This document shows positions 1,170 through 19,694 of a stretch of 64,000 nucleotides of DNA, in pieces. The DNA is from a virus. Its lineage: Duplodnaviria; Caudoviricetes. Positions within the stretch are counted from its first letter, which is position 1; each line of letters begins with the position of its first letter. The stretch covers positions 1 to 64,000 of the IMG/VR virus record IMGVR_UViG_3300033066_001190; one strand, given 5' to 3'. Under the pieces are notes generated by a model that saw only the letters and a list, made by a program, of their open reading frames with translations, made no database searches and was not told where the DNA came from. Both the position numbers and the translations under genes were made by a program.

Positions 1170-1471
1170 AATTTATATTTTTGGTAAGTTTCTTCGAATG
1201 TGTTTATTATTAATTGTTTGTCTACTACAATATTTTGATGATTTATATCACAATCTCAATCAGCTTTTTCAGCAGCTTTTTCAAGAGCAATTTTAATTAC
1301 TTCTTGAATATGAAGATTGTATTCTTCTGAAGTAAAAATGATTAGTTTTTCTTCATATACATTATAATCTTTATCAAAAGATTTATAATAATCAGAATTA
1401 TCAACACGTCCTACTTGTAAGGTTATATCATCTGAAGTAGGAATATAAACAGTTTTAAGTGTTGGTTTCAT
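1166..1471 (-). pseudogene. Hypothetical protein gene with an internal in-frame TGA (1256-1258)
   Basis: The frame continues past the TGA (AAEKAD*DCDINHQNIVVDKQLIINTFEETYQKYKL) and ends in an ATGA overlap with the start of 852..1169. Confidence 0.7.
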
Positions 1472-2054
1472 ATATTAAATTCTGTTTTAATTTTTCATTA
1501 GCTTTCTCATATTTAGAAATTTGTTCTAAATTCTTCTTGTAGGTTTCAGTTTCTTCTTTCAATTCTGAATTTTTCTGTAAATAGTAATTAATCATTTTTT
1601 GATTGGAATCAATTTGTTTTTTAATTGCAGATTCTACTTCATAACTAATATCATCTAATAAAGCATAGGAAAGTTTTTTATTCAATCTTTCTATTTCTTC
1701 CAAGATTTTTTTATTCCTTTCAAGTTTCATATTTGCTTCTAAAATTTCAAAACATTCATGATAAATTTTAACAAACAATAAGCATTGTAATTTATAATCA
1801 GTAGAATTCCAAATCTTATTAGAATAATCAAAACACTTATTAAATACTTCTCCTAAATTGTTTAAAGCGTCTTCAAAAATATATAGCTCATCAGGATCTC
1901 CATAATAATGCAATTGAGCTTTTACATTGTTTTCTTCATACACTTTATTATCTTCTGTACATATTGACATATAAAAAGATAAATTTTGTTCTGAAGAACA
2001 AAGATTGTACTTTCCTACAGAGCATTGTGTTATTCTTATTTTGTGTGGTTTCAT
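1455..2054 (-). CDS. Hypothetical protein with C-terminal coiled coil
   Basis: 199-aa ORF, overlap-coupled with its neighbours. Confidence 0.75.
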   Translation of the reverse strand: MKPHKIRITQCSVGKYNLCSSEQNLSFYMSICTEDNKVYEENNVKAQLHYYGDPDELYIFEDALNNLGEVFNKCFDYSNKIWNSTDYKLQCLLFVKIYHECFEILEANMKLERNKKILEEIERLNKKLSYALLDDISYEVESAIKKQIDSNQKMINYYLQKNSELKEETETYKKNLEQISKYEKANEKLKQNLIYETNT

Positions 2055-2311
2055 ATATCTAGTTTTAAATTTGTAGGATTATTCCAAGCTAATTCATACA
2101 TTCTATCTTTCATTTCTTCTGTAAGTTCAAAAGGTAAATCTTCCTCAGATTCAAACTCAACGGTATTACCTTCTGGCGCATTTTCGTTATCACCTTCTTC
2201 AATCATACTAAACCAGTATTCTTCGCCATCAAAAGTAAAAGATATGCTAGTTTCATTTTTAAAATATGTTTTTCCTCTTGTTTCAAATTGAATTTCAAAA
2301 TCTTTATTCAT
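2051..2311 (-). CDS. Acidic hypothetical protein
   Basis: ATGA-coupled ORF in the early operon. Confidence 0.7.
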   Translation of the reverse strand: MNKDFEIQFETRGKTYFKNETSISFTFDGEEYWFSMIEEGDNENAPEGNTVEFESEEDLPFELTEEMKDRMYELAWNNPTNLKLDI

Positions 2312-2598
2312 ATATCTAGTTCTAAATTTGCGATGTAGTCCTCAAATTGACTATAAGTTGGTTTTATATCATCTATTGAATCAATGTTATCAACAGACCT
2401 TCCAGCTAAAAAAGCTTTTTCGATTTCTGGAATTAAAGGAATTAATTTATATTGATATAGAATTGACTGCAATACATCTATTTCTTTTTGAATAGGCATA
2501 TCATGTCTCTCATTAACAAAAGATAGTCGTTTATTACAATTTTCTATTCTTTTTTCTATTTCTTCCTTATTTATAATGATGTATTTGTCTTTATTCAT
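2308..2598 (-). CDS. Hypothetical protein
   Basis: Coupled ORF with IEKAFLAGR...FEDY pattern seen in small Bacteroidota-phage proteins. Confidence 0.7.
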   Translation of the reverse strand: MNKDKYIIINKEEIEKRIENCNKRLSFVNERHDMPIQKEIDVLQSILYQYKLIPLIPEIEKAFLAGRSVDNIDSIDDIKPTYSQFEDYIANLELDI

Positions 2599-2824
2599 TT
2601 TCTTTTACAAATTTAGGTTGTAAAATATCATCTACAATATCTGAAATTAATTCAGGAGCATCAATAAGTGTATTATCAGATTGCATAATCCCTTCTCCAC
2701 TATGCGAAGCATAATGACTAGGATGTTGCATCCATTCAATTATTTTATTTAGTATAGCATCAGCTACTTCAGAGGTATAATTAACTTTGTATATACAGTC
2801 TCCAATTTTTATTTCTTTGTTCAT
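2591..2824 (-). CDS. Hypothetical protein
   Basis: Overlap-coupled ORF. Confidence 0.7.
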   Translation of the reverse strand: MNKEIKIGDCIYKVNYTSEVADAILNKIIEWMQHPSHYASHSGEGIMQSDNTLIDAPELISDIVDDILQPKFVKENE

Positions 2825-4693: not shown

Positions 4694-5035
4694 TTAAATT
4701 AAGTTGATTAATACATATTCAATTGCAGCAGAGTAGGCTTCTGATAGTGAATTGAATCTAGATGTTTCACAATCATCTATTGTTTTATATGGATTACCTA
4801 CTTCCCCACTAATAAAATAATACCAATAGACACTACATGGATATTCATCTCCATTATTTTGTGGAGTCCAATCAACGCTAATCCAAATTCCATATTTCTC
4901 ATACAACCACATTATAACCTGCATTATTTCAGAATGTAGATGCTGATTATCTTTATTCATAGAATCTAATTCTTCTACAGTATTTTGATAGTAATGCTTG
5001 TAACCTTTTTTACTTAGTCTTTTGAATATTTCCAT
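4694..5035 (-). CDS. Hypothetical protein, paralog of 6036..6437
   Basis: EIFKRLSKKGY...VIMWLYEKYGIWI...EAYSAAIEY aligns by eye with EIAKLLKKKGF...VVDWCFNKYKYSI...KALEDTINH. Confidence 0.7.
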   Translation of the reverse strand: MEIFKRLSKKGYKHYYQNTVEELDSMNKDNQHLHSEIMQVIMWLYEKYGIWISVDWTPQNNGDEYPCSVYWYYFISGEVGNPYKTIDDCETSRFNSLSEAYSAAIEYVLINLI

Positions 5036-5847
5036 ATAAAATTATTTGCTGTTTTTTGTTTATTTTTACAACATCTTATTATAGATGATTTAGATGTTTT
5101 TGTTTGTTTGGAAGCTTCTGAAATAGAAATCCAAGTCTTAATTAGCAATCCTTCTAAATTATATTGATTTACTTGAAAAGGTTTACCTATGTATACTTTT
5201 TTAGGCTTTTGTATATAATCAATTGGATTTTCTTTTCTCTTCCAAATAAACCCTTTGGAAGATTTTTGTTTTCCATTTACACAAGAGTTTATGCCACTTT
5301 CATAAATGCCTAATTTATTAGCAGCTTCTCTCATTGAAAACCATTCTCTAATAAAATTCATTTCTAAATTATATTGTATAATAGAAACGCTAAGTTTTTT
5401 ACTAATATTCTTTTTCCACTCCTCTGTTCTTTTTTTACCAATGTTTGCTTTTCTTATTTTCTCTTTTCTTTCTTCATTAAATTTTTTTCCTTTTAAACTA
5501 TTAGATATTTTTTGTTTTACGTCATCAATATGAGAGGCTCCTTCACCACCAAAAGTCTTATTGTAACCATATAAATCAATATGTGATTTATATTCTTTAA
5601 TTAATTTTATTTCTAATTCATTAAGAGTTATTTCTTCTATCTCCTCAAAAGAGTCTAAAATCAAAAAACTAAAATTAACTTCACCATATTTATTAAATGA
5701 ACTTTGTAAATGAGAATTTGGATGAGTGTTGCTTTTTAAGGCATATAAATGTTTTTCCCATCTTTCAGATATATTTTTAGATTTACCAATATAAACTTTA
5801 TTGTTTATAACATTTTTTATACAATAAATTCCACAAATTTTATCCAT
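5014..5847 (-). CDS. GIY-YIG homing endonuclease with NUMOD3/NUMOD1 domains
   Basis: GIYCIKN...VYIGKS..ISERW..H; GYN.T.GG; two QYNLE..I..W.S..EA...I..C..GK modules. Confidence 0.93.
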   Translation of the reverse strand: MDKICGIYCIKNVINNKVYIGKSKNISERWEKHLYALKSNTHPNSHLQSSFNKYGEVNFSFLILDSFEEIEEITLNELEIKLIKEYKSHIDLYGYNKTFGGEGASHIDDVKQKISNSLKGKKFNEERKEKIRKANIGKKRTEEWKKNISKKLSVSIIQYNLEMNFIREWFSMREAANKLGIYESGINSCVNGKQKSSKGFIWKRKENPIDYIQKPKKVYIGKPFQVNQYNLEGLLIKTWISISEASKQTKTSKSSIIRCCKNKQKTANNFIWKYSKD

Positions 5848-6681: not shown

Positions 6682-7059
6682 TTATTTATTTTGTTTTTCA
6701 TACCAGATGAGAAATTGGTTTATTGCTTCTACAACTGCTTCTTTTTTAGATGTTTTTATTTTCATAGAAATATAAAAATCTTCTTGTTCGCCATTTTTTT
6801 GTTCTATAGTACAACCTTCTTTTCTAAACCAAATAGTAACGGCTGTATTGCTCGTTTTCTCAATAACATCAATTACCTCATGAATCCAATTCCAATCAGA
6901 GTGAAATTTTAAATCATTTTGAAAGTAAACCATTTCATCCATTTTAATAGTGTTGGTTTCATAACTATTATGATATTTTGGATTAATACCATTATATTTT
7001 TTCCAACCTAAAAATATAGCACAACGTTTATTAAATTTTAATATTTCTTCTTGATTCAT
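6682..7059 (-). CDS. Hypothetical phage protein (LKFHSDWNW pattern)
   Basis: FNKRCAIFLGW...LKFHSDWNWIHEVIDVIE...EAVVEAINQFLIWY. Confidence 0.75.
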   Translation of the reverse strand: MNQEEILKFNKRCAIFLGWKKYNGINPKYHNSYETNTIKMDEMVYFQNDLKFHSDWNWIHEVIDVIEKTSNTAVTIWFRKEGCTIEQKNGEQEDFYISMKIKTSKKEAVVEAINQFLIWYEKQNK

Positions 7060-7076
7060 AATTTGTTAATTTATTG

Positions 7077-7340
7077 TTAAAACCATTTTATCACTTTACT
7101 CAATAATCCAGCATATATTACAAACATAAAACTCAATAATGCCCAAATTGATATAATTTCAAAGAAATTTCCTTCAAATGGGTTAAATGGGACATTTTTT
7201 TCATTGCATTTCTTGTTTACATTATATACAGAATATATCCCTAAAATGATTATAATAGATAGTATTGTTATTTCTTTCATTTGTTTTGATTTTAAGTTTA
7301 ACCATTCCATCTCTAACACATTTAGGTTTTCTAACTTCAT
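7077..7340 (-). CDS. Small membrane protein (true start probably the internal Met near 7280)
   Basis: Two hydrophobic segments. Confidence 0.55.
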   Translation of the reverse strand: MKLENLNVLEMEWLNLKSKQMKEITILSIIIILGIYSVYNVNKKCNEKNVPFNPFEGNFFEIISIWALLSFMFVIYAGLLSKVIKWF

Positions 7341-7406
7341 GCGAAACAGCTTTCATAGCATATTGAACTATTTCATGTGTACAAGGTTTCATTTTAATTA
7401 ATTTTG

Positions 7407-7553
7407 TTCTGTGGGCAGGATTCGAACCTGCATGAGTAACATTTTCAAATTTGCCTATGGCTAACAAAAGCAGTAAACTGCATTAATTTTCTATTTGCTA
7501 GGTCTTACTCTAGGGCAACCCTCTTTAGCGTCTGCCAATTCCGCCACCACAGA
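7407..7553 (-). ncRNA. Atypical tRNA-like RNA (Leu/Ser-type D and T arms, no canonical anticodon arm, ~80-nt variable arm)
   Basis: Acceptor TCTGTGG/CCACAGA with discriminator A; U8; D arm GCGG-AATTGGCAGA-CGC; T arm GCAGG-TTCGAAT-CCTGC; ~95 nt between D and T arms. Confidence 0.8.
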
Positions 7554-7567
7554 ATCCTTAAAGATTA

Positions 7568-9001
7568 TTAATCTTTAACTTGTTGATAATAATTCCAAAT
7601 CTCTAACCAATTGGCATATGTTGATTTCGCAGATTTGCAACCAGTTTTTTCAAACGTAATTTCTGATACTTTAGCATCATAACTACCAAACTTTGTTGGA
7701 ACATTGCTGTAAAAATCTACCATTTCTTTTACATAATTGGTAATATTTTCACTACCTTGATAAATTCCTTGTGGTTTTACGTTTACAATAAATGAATTAG
7801 GTGCGCCAAGAGTAAAATCTTTAGATGAATAAGCTTGAATTTCTTCTGGTGTAGCTTTTCTCATAAATTCATCTTGACAACCTCCTTCTACTTTTTCATT
7901 AGTTGCAATTACAAACATTTTTCCTCCGTAATAAGCTTTTTTAGGTTGTACAATTTTTCCAAATAAATCTTTTTGTCCAGCAGCCCAATGAGTTGCATTT
8001 GCTGGTACATTAAGAATCACATAATCCCCCACTTTAAACTTTTCTTCGTAAACGGCTTCCCAAGTTTCTACGATTTCTGCTGGAAGAACTATTTTATTAT
8101 CTCCATCATATTTACATTCATACCAAACTCCAAAATAAGAACTTGTTTTTTTAAATGTTAATCCTTTTACACTATGTCCCCCTAAATCCATAGGAGCTTT
8201 GTAACCAATTATTTTTCTTGTTGTTTGTTTTTCCATGTCTATTAGTTCTTGCAATTTGTAAATTTGAATTTCTGAGTCAGGTTTTACTCTACCACTGTAT
8301 TGTACTATTTCGTCACTTTTAACCCAATAAATGCGAGAATCAAAACCTTCACCCGTATAATCATTTATATCATATCCACGTTTTTCAAACCAATTAAGGA
8401 TATCTTTCCCATTTTCATTTTCTATAACTATTCCAAAATTTTCTGTAGGTAACATTTGTTTAGGGTTTGTTTTGTTATAATATTCTTTTAATGTTTCATC
8501 TTCTCCAAATTTAGGAATATAGACGTTTTTAATGAATTGTTCTATGGTTATACGTTTATAATTAGAAAACTTATCAATATTATTATTAAACCATCTTGTC
8601 GCACAATAAAAACTTCTATCAACAGTGTGTTTTGATAATAAAATTTTATCTAAATATCTATCAATCATATCACGATATGTTCTAACTGAATTTCTCCATT
8701 TCTCAAAAATATCAAATGTTTCTTCTGTATATTGTATATACCATTGTTCTGGAAATTCTTCAAAATCAATTTCATTAAAGAAAATAACAGTGTCAGCTCC
8801 AGATTGTTTATAAGATCCAGCATCTGTTTTTGAAACAAAATAATCCCATGTACCACGTGTTAAACTATAATTTTTTTTTCTTGAAGACGGCCAAAAATTA
8901 CACATGTTAAATAAACCTGTATCTTTCAATTTCTGCCATTGTTTTTTTGTTTCAATATAAACAACTACTTTATCATTGTTTACTAAATCTTTTAGTTTCA
9001 T
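7568..9001 (-). CDS. Mosaic multi-module hypothetical protein
   Basis: 477 aa built of short modules (FPEQWYI, LPTENFGI, RKIIGYKAP, FKVGDYV...RKATPEEI). Confidence 0.8.
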   Translation of the reverse strand: MKLKDLVNNDKVVVYIETKKQWQKLKDTGLFNMCNFWPSSRKKNYSLTRGTWDYFVSKTDAGSYKQSGADTVIFFNEIDFEEFPEQWYIQYTEETFDIFEKWRNSVRTYRDMIDRYLDKILLSKHTVDRSFYCATRWFNNNIDKFSNYKRITIEQFIKNVYIPKFGEDETLKEYYNKTNPKQMLPTENFGIVIENENGKDILNWFEKRGYDINDYTGEGFDSRIYWVKSDEIVQYSGRVKPDSEIQIYKLQELIDMEKQTTRKIIGYKAPMDLGGHSVKGLTFKKTSSYFGVWYECKYDGDNKIVLPAEIVETWEAVYEEKFKVGDYVILNVPANATHWAAGQKDLFGKIVQPKKAYYGGKMFVIATNEKVEGGCQDEFMRKATPEEIQAYSSKDFTLGAPNSFIVNVKPQGIYQGSENITNYVKEMVDFYSNVPTKFGSYDAKVSEITFEKTGCKSAKSTYANWLEIWNYYQQVKD

Positions 9002-19366: not shown

Positions 19367-19591
19367 TTAAAGTTGATTTTCTATGTAACAAAAGGAATCT
19401 ACAATCAAATATAATGTACCAAATCCGCTTAATACATAAAAAAATACAAAGGGACTGTTAACTACTTCTACCATTTTTACATCAAATATTAATGCAAAAA
19501 ATGCAGTGAGTAACCAATTACATCCTGTAACAAGCATAATGATTACTATTGTTACAACAGGATAAAGAAATAATTTAAGTAGTGGATTCAT
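19367..19591 (-). CDS. Small membrane protein
   Basis: Hydrophobic ORF. Confidence 0.6.
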   Translation of the reverse strand: MNPLLKLFLYPVVTIVIIMLVTGCNWLLTAFFALIFDVKMVEVVNSPFVFFYVLSGFGTLYLIVDSFCYIENQL

Positions 19592-19694
19592 GTTATTTGT
19601 TTTTTTTTTTATGTTGTTAAAATTGTTTTCTTCCCTGTTGTATTAAACGAAAAGAGTTTAGCTTTGATATTATCTCCCCTTAAACTCAAAGTTA

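Follow-up and report, generated by a model that had tools for sequence, protein, structure and literature searches.

Phage T5 carries an RNA gene, RNA1 (AY543070.1, 30501–30644), that is annotated as "tRNA-like stable RNA with unknown functions". RNA1 is the closest annotated relative of the RNA gene described here, which lies in the first 64 kb (64,000 nucleotides; hereafter the window) of the record of an uncultured phage (IMGVR_UViG_3300033066_001190; 106,587 bp, or 106.6 kb). The gene is 147 nt long and is located on the minus strand, from 7553 (RNA position 1) to 7407 (the discriminator); minus-strand parts are read 5' to 3' throughout. It has the acceptor stem, D arm (of leucine type), T arm, and A73 of a bacterial tRNA-Leu, and an unrelated insert replaces the anticodon and variable arms. 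We refer to the retained part as a tRNA-Leu shell and to the insert as its cargo. Our favored reading, held with moderate confidence, is that the locus encodes a non-decoding tRNA-Leu shell RNA that would be processed and whose cargo would be swappable.

Like the window RNA, T5 RNA1 is closed over its full length by an acceptor stem (GGAATA/TGTTCC) and has U8-G9 with the same D loop (CCGGAATTGGTAGACGG), an insert of ~80 nt without an anticodon arm, and a T arm (GAAGG-TTCAACT-CCTTC). Unlike the window RNA, it has an acceptor stem of six pairs plus a U-U, and the two inserts are unrelated. RNA1 belongs to a tRNA gene cluster with over 20 members; in contrast, the phage of the window RNA has no further tRNA-like gene. 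R1, a covariance model of phage shells that is described below, aligns with RNA1 from end to end, but the score of 43.7 bits is in the range of ordinary tRNA-Leu and not in the 68–86 bits of the core of the family, as the sequence of RNA1 is more distant. The Rfam tRNA model RF00005 gives RNA1 24 bits, below its cut-off. Because RNA1 itself has no assigned function, it explains nothing about mechanism. The window RNA, whose cargo is an orphan, adds a member to a poorly characterized kind of RNA of which RNA1 has been an annotated example for years.

The shell itself is that of tRNA-Leu. The U8-G9 and D arm are identical to those of bacterial and phage tRNA-Leu, which also have the same T loop, A73, and U48. 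The shared A73, U48, and D/T elbow parts are those read by E. coli leucyl-tRNA synthetase (LeuRS; PMC9976931). Unlike tRNA-Leu, the window RNA has no anticodon stem-loop and no ordinary variable arm, and it cannot read a codon.

Other described RNAs are less similar. T4 species 1 and 2 RNAs (rnaC and rnaD; AF158101) are small stable phage RNAs beside tRNA genes, with no assigned function. The likeness of rnaC to the window RNA is confined to a perfect T arm (CCGGG-TTCGAAT-CCCGG); a leucine-type D arm is missing, and only 5/7 positions pair between the annotated ends. No tRNA frame is seen in rnaD. In the engineered "tRNA scaffold" (the Ponchon–Dardel design), a foreign RNA replaces the anticodon arm, and the cell processes and stabilizes it like a tRNA. 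That scaffold is man-made, whereas the shell arrangement is natural and leucine-type. Lak megaphages of Prevotella carry tRNAs that are "larger than expected", are unclassifiable by bacterial prediction, and have been read as containing "enigmatic introns" (Devoto et al. 2019, PMC6784885). The interpretation as spliced tRNAs relied on eukaryotic search settings, and from their description they may be the same kind of RNA as the shells.

The tRNA-Leu frame of the window RNA

R1 was built from 41 phage shells with mutually unrelated inserts; the window sequence was left out, and the three shell helices were the only structure input. R1 aligns with 7553–7407 from end to end at 85.6 bits (E 2.4e-18), its sole significant match in the 64 kb. 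As controls, other shells score 68–86 bits, and ordinary bacterial tRNA-Leu genes and Leu+Gly tandems score 24–51 bits. Because R1 reaches this score over the full length of the RNA although it was built without the window sequence, the tRNA frame is clearly far above chance. A covariance model from related phages had been suggested as a check by an earlier, sequence-only reading of the locus, which had described a tRNA mimic with a perfect acceptor stem, a class-II-type D arm, and a perfect T arm. All three are present at 7407–7553, on the minus strand, which that reading had left unstated. The parts of the gene are as follows.

7554, minus strand: U at position −1, the same in 45/60 shells and in 95/147 ordinary tRNAs of those loci
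7547–7553, minus strand: 5' strand of the acceptor stem, TCTGTGG, with 7/7 pairs to 7408–7414; aligned to the acceptor stem of R1
7528–7546, minus strand: U8 G9 and the leucine-type (class II) D arm, with a 3-bp stem (GCG/CGC) and the loop GAATTGGCAGA, which contains A14, A15, and G18 G19
7432–7527, minus strand: insert (cargo), 96 nt between the D and T arms; its last base, T at 7432, is the equivalent of position 48
7512–7522, minus strand: mini-hairpin AGGG-TTG-CCCT, seen in the sequence and in the minimum free energy (MFE) fold
7434–7510, minus strand: helix GAGTAA (7505–7510)/TTACTC (7434–7439), in the MFE fold
7461–7501, minus strand: hairpin CTAGCAAA...TTTGTTAG, inside the GAGTAA/TTACTC helix, in the MFE fold
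7470–7481, minus strand: cap GCAG-TTTA-CTGC of that hairpin, in the MFE fold
7415–7431, minus strand: T arm GCAGG-TTCGAAT-CCTGC, the sole part matched by the Rfam tRNA model (14.4 bits)
7404–7414, minus strand: 3' strand of the acceptor stem, CCACAGA (7408–7414), A73 (7407), and the trailer CAA (7404–7406), read directly

The pairing of the shell is flawless (7/7, 3/3, and 5/5) and all universal tRNA bases are present, in a region with a local G+C content of ~27%. In the alignment columns of the 41 family members, the stretch from U8-G9 through the D arm is invariant or nearly so, and the same D arm is found in ordinary tRNA-Leu genes of phages and bacteria. A motif scan for a stem-flanked GTTCRANTC T-loop gives the window T arm as its only match in the 106-kb genome, and by the shell search and the motif scan the window RNA is the sole element of such type in the genome. 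R1 detects no shell at the structured intergenic elements at 16.4, 18.1–18.8, and 19.9–20.2 kb (minus strand), which belong to the same early block. At the 3' end, CCA is not encoded and A73 is followed by CAA. The acceptor 3:70 pair is U-A, so there is no G3:U70. In the 96-nt insert there is no 7-nt anticodon loop, and it resembles no part of a tRNA. On each of these three points, the sequence-only reading was accurate.

Standard tools do not report the gene. Across the 106,587-bp record, no tRNA or tmRNA is called by ARAGORN at default settings, by Rfam at gathering thresholds, or by RF00005. A permissive Rfam search (E up to 10, 401-nt region) returns the T arm alone, at 14.4 bits. With neither a 5-bp anticodon stem nor a 7-nt loop, the RNA was rejected as a canonical decoding tRNA. 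It was also rejected as a tmRNA, the 3:70 pair being U-A, the ARAGORN tmRNA search being empty here even at a lowered threshold, and Rfam giving no match. A 12-codon ATG...TGA frame (MQFTAFVSHRQI; 7445–7483, minus strand) lies within the insert; there is no tmRNA-like feature nearby, and it is probably a product of chance. The earlier reading had likewise seen no tag open reading frame (ORF). For the bacterial Y RNA/YrlA tRNA-like module, the same permissive search gives no match. In addition, the ends of the window RNA form an acceptor stem, whereas the Y RNA/YrlA ends in a Ro-binding stem. VIPR guide RNAs, which are tandem GGYNN units (bioRxiv 10.64898/2026.10.15.759431), are unrelated to the window RNA.

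A virus-enriched family with unrelated inserts

The window RNA has the features of phage tRNA-Leu shell RNAs, i.e., a 7-bp closing acceptor stem, U8-G9 and a leucine-type D arm (loop GAAUUGGYAGA), a T arm (5 bp, UUCRAAU loop) directly before the 3' acceptor strand, an insert of at least 50 nt without an anticodon stem-loop, and an R1 score in the family range. To count such RNAs, we use a search pattern that consists of the leucine-type D arm, 85–115 unspecified bases, and the T loop. Over 112 viral contigs contain the pattern, and most of these show perfect pairing between the heptamer that precedes the D arm and the one that follows the T arm, with many different acceptor sequences among them. 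Among 82 distinct viral matches, 53 are clear shells (7/7 acceptor pairs across the insert) and two more pair at 6/7. The same pattern was applied to a control set of one genome per species (185,579 bacterial and archaeal species). In these bacterial genomes, 4/112 distinct matches are clear shells, plus one at 6/7, and 104/112 are an ordinary tRNA-Leu followed by a neighboring tRNA.

The 62 distinct long viral shells contain 36 different acceptor stems, and all 62 are paired at 7/7 positions. U8-G9 is present in all 62, A73 in 55, and a U at the equivalent of position 48 in 61; the commonest 3' trailers are ACAA (29 shells) and ACUA (9 shells). Inserts in the family members seen are about 54–112 nt long. 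ARAGORN called no family member, its single call being a tRNA-Val within a tandem artefact. Therefore, the window RNA belongs to a large, virus-enriched family whose members share only the top half of a tRNA. This bears out the view, already put forward from the sequence, that it is a non-decoding tRNA-like RNA, as does the lack of an anticodon stem-loop. In 12 of the 34 shell-bearing viral records, five of which are at least 94% complete, there is no RF00005 match at all. A shell as the sole tRNA-like gene of a phage is thus common. In a phage that has no decoding tRNA but has a flawless tRNA-Leu shell, the shell cannot supplement codon usage.

Three further observations concern individual members of the family and its description. 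A shell in a Flavobacterium metagenome-assembled genome (L173) has the C20 D loop, the T arm, and the ACAA trailer of the window RNA. On a contig from a bacterial genome (L240), adjacent R1 matches at 6908–7066 and 7070–7196 (plus strand; 78.8 and 28.9 bits) suggest that two shell-type RNAs lie in tandem there, probably within a prophage. A full-text search found no publication that describes the family; subscription journals, including the old T5 papers, were outside its reach. In the main text of a 2023 catalogue of 10,006 candidate viral RNAs, anticodon-less shells do not appear, and tRNA-like structures are mentioned only where ARAGORN overlaps.

The inserts are far more diverse than the shells, as 61 shells carry 46 mutually unrelated insert types. 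Replacement of the insert is seen directly in two close relatives. The cultured Bacteroides phage BS-TP2 has an unannotated shell of ~108 nt (L122:2423–2530, plus strand; PQ571275.1, about 19550–19657), which sits between gp31 (DUF2303) and gp32 (NinG) and, the phage being in culture, would be amenable to experiment. RF00005 matches this shell at 40 bits, but only by skipping the anticodon arm. In an uncultured relative of BS-TP2 (L015), the flanking proteins are 66–89% identical, and a shell again follows immediately on the same DUF2303 gene. The two shells agree at 46/54 positions, and they differ only by compensatory changes in the acceptor stem; the inserts, of 57 and 99 nt, are unalignable. 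Therefore, the cargo has been replaced and the chassis kept. Wholesale cargo swap between phages whose neighboring proteins are this similar is the pattern expected of conflict genes.

In one subfamily of eight sequences, the insert itself shows signs of selected pairing. Two insert helices have compensatory changes (one pair is U-A, A-U, or G-C; another is A-U or G-C), and four acceptor pairs change compensatorily. Overall, 98.8% of the cells are paired, which is equaled by none of 500 shuffles. The folding z-score of this subfamily is positive; because covariation is present all the same, a weak z-score does not exclude selected structure. A common insert architecture or pseudoknot is not supported, as helices anchored at position 27 or abutting the T arm do not exceed in length those of shuffled inserts.

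Proposed processing and rival explanations

In the favored reading, the RNA would be transcribed within an early minus-strand operon, host RNase P would cut its 5' end, and a 3' processing activity would cut after A73. The half of a tRNA recognized by RNase P, RNase Z, and the CCA-adding enzyme is that of the acceptor stem, T arm, and elbow. It is because this part is intact in the window RNA that we infer its processing. The host CCA-adding enzyme would then add CCA, since the phage encodes no enzyme of this kind. Excision from the early transcript would also part the flanking mRNAs. The product would be a stable RNA of ~150 nt with an L-shaped top half and the cargo projecting from the core. 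The shell would provide processing and stability, and the insert would be the lineage-specific working part, probably in conflict between phage and host or between phages. Of the functions that the sequence-only reading had offered, a carrier processed by RNase P and RNase Z fits best, as related phages keep the shell and replace the insert, and the inserts share no motif.

E. coli LeuRS requires A73, A15-U48, G18G19, A20a, and D/T-loop contacts, and the anticodon and the long variable arm are dispensable, tRNA-Leu variants without both being still charged (review PMC9976931, citing Larkin 2002 and Asahara 1993/1998). All E. coli-type determinant positions are present in the window RNA, and the determinants are kept across the family although the acceptor stems have turned over completely. 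Leucine charging of the window RNA, or at least LeuRS binding, is therefore plausible. That the shell retains exactly the parts needed by the E. coli enzyme raises the question of whether such RNAs are aminoacylated without ever decoding, and the charged or uncharged state of the shell might matter for its function. More tentatively, the leucine-tRNA top half may be a universal chassis, handled in any bacterium by host RNase P, the CCA-adding enzyme, and possibly LeuRS/EF-Tu, and the interchangeable cargos may be conflict effectors (decoys, sponges, or aptamers for defense or host proteins). If this is true, the chassis is a natural, widespread counterpart of the engineered tRNA scaffold. If the RNAs are made and processed as proposed, they are a large class of small phage RNAs that goes unseen in standard annotation, given that ARAGORN called no family member and that the BS-TP2 example is unannotated.

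Several observations weigh against a processed RNA with a working cargo, most of them from the insert. The fold of the window insert has −19.1 kcal/mol (z-score −0.83), and 42/200 dinucleotide shuffles fold equally well. The same is typical of the family, in which inserts are only modestly more structured than shuffles (mean z-score −0.81, 20% below −2; 45 insert types). The insert helices listed in the sequence-only reading are all present in the MFE fold; because the insert folds no better than shuffles, to call them a "collapsed anticodon arm" and a "giant structured variable arm" is one possible reading, unsupported beyond chance. No shared insert motif was found, as no 5–7-mer exceeds the shuffle maxima in the 61 shells, and no homologue of the window insert is present in any collection searched. 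Exact patterns for the 5' and 3' parts of the shell and for three pieces of the insert have no match in viral, metagenome, or genome contigs. When the region was compared with 50,697 phage records by blastn, the sole match was to the T arm of BS-TP2, which is thus the only record linked to the window in this way, and blastn-short and nhmmer searches of the insert against loci L001–L119 gave chance words only. As the insert has no homologue, selection on it is unproven. No antisense target of the insert was found in its own phage genome, where the longest match, 13 nt, is at chance level. Among the neighbors of shells, no protein family recurs at more than 3/45 loci. With regard to charging, the CAA trailer could mean that the mature end is not CCA and that the RNA is never charged, and the LeuRS rules are those of E. 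coli (PMC9976931) and may not hold for the host of this phage.

Two alternatives keep the shell functional but assign no working role, or a lesser one, to the insert. The RNA could be a processing signal only ("tRNA punctuation"), in which case the shell serves to attract RNase P and a 3' nuclease, which cut the early polycistronic transcript between ORFs, the insert is filler, and the released RNA is functionless. The tight fit of the RNA between ORFs and the lack of a dedicated promoter or terminator agree with this, and so does the conservation of the shell alone: inserts are unalignable even in close relatives and share no motif, and the window insert folds at chance. However, an ordinary tRNA or a bare shell would do equally well, yet inserts stay at about 54–112 nt; one subfamily has compensatory changes inside the insert, and a fifth of the inserts have z-scores below −2. 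In addition, A73, U48, and the leucine-type D loop are kept despite the turnover of the acceptor stem, and cleavage alone does not need them. We therefore consider punctuation unlikely. Alternatively, the shell could be the active part, a decoy or sponge for factors that read the top half of tRNAs (toxins or defense enzymes that act on the acceptor end or elbow, LeuRS, or EF-Tu), and the insert would tune stability or block decoding. In favor of a decoy, the elbow, the acceptor stem, and all LeuRS determinants are intact, and this phage, like others, has no tRNA-like gene besides the shell. A PNKP gene and an RNA ligase gene in this phage (see below) are consistent with tRNA-directed attack in the host, but PNKP does not co-occur with shells (none of the 36 other shell-bearing records passes the cut-off, with one weak match below it). 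Neither the diversity nor the wholesale replacement of the inserts is explained by a decoy, and no target is identified. The version aimed at anticodon nucleases, which the sequence-only reading had included, is discounted, as there is no anticodon loop to cleave. We give a decoy a similarly low probability.

The remaining two alternatives start from a decoding tRNA. Splicing of part of the insert could yield one, the outcome that the sequence-only reading had named as refuting its own proposal. When introns are allowed, ARAGORN reports one match in the genome, exactly here, a "tRNA-Asn(GTT)" with a 55-nt intron, and the phage encodes PNKP and RNA ligase. However, the ARAGORN model is poor, with an anticodon stem paired at 3/5 positions, an intron at 31/32, a long unpaired variable loop, and an Asn anticodon on a Leu-type body. 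The other stem, CTAGC/GTTAG, encloses a 31-nt loop that starts with AAA, and a single internal excision gives no 7-nt loop with U33. Rfam finds no group I core or other intron family, and 55–96 nt is too short for a group I intron. The family inserts share no splice-site motif, and PNKP is absent from the other shell-bearing phages at the cut-off. The oversized, unclassifiable Lak megaphage tRNAs, published as having "enigmatic introns" (PMC6784885), are a precedent for such a reading, but for the window RNA we regard it as very unlikely. Still less credible is a functionless remnant, either a decayed tRNA-Leu pseudogene or an attachment-site fragment. The lack of an anticodon loop, the orphan insert with its chance-level fold, and the absence of an encoded CCA would be expected of decay. 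The shell, however, is flawless in an AT-rich, fast-diverging genome and has an R1 score at the top of the family range, both tRNA halves are present, unlike in an attP fragment, and the same design recurs with 36 acceptor stems, each perfectly paired.

Genome context

The window RNA is on the same strand as the ORFs that flank it.

7568–9001, minus strand: upstream ORF of 477 aa, with no Pfam or PHROG match; its stop codon ends 14 nt before RNA position 1
7222–7392, minus strand: downstream ORF of 56 codons; its ATG lies 14 nt after the discriminator

Neither the interval between the 477-aa ORF and the RNA nor that between the RNA and the next ORF contains a promoter-like or terminator-like site. 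The stop codon of the 477-aa ORF falls within a short hairpin, AAAGATT-AAT-AATCTTT (7562–7578, minus strand), immediately upstream of the RNA. The 56-codon ORF (ATG at 7392) overlaps an alternative 87-aa ORF in another frame (7077–7340, ATG at 7340). Relatives of the 477-aa protein have at most 38% identity. A profile of this protein finds seven distant loci, and one of them (L117) has a different shell ~580 nt upstream and is therefore not syntenic. The phage is poorly related to catalogued ones, and no close relative was found in the collections searched.

No gene for a CCA-adding enzyme, RtcB, or L/F-transferase is found in the phage genome. Outside the window, at ~96.1–98.4 kb of the record (L243:413–1393 and 1390–2724, minus strand), lie the adjacent PNKP and RNA ligase genes. 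The former encodes an AAA_33 kinase and HAD_PNKP (E 9e-31), and the latter encodes a PHA02142 OB fold and PF09414. The two resemble the heal-and-seal RNA repair pair of T4 type, in a phage without a decoding tRNA gene. A homing endonuclease gene of the GIY-YIG/HNH type (phrog_314, E 5e-37) lies at 5014–5847 (minus strand), ~1.6 kb downstream of the window RNA; the tRNA regions of T4 (segB) and T5 (hegC and hegD) likewise contain homing endonucleases.

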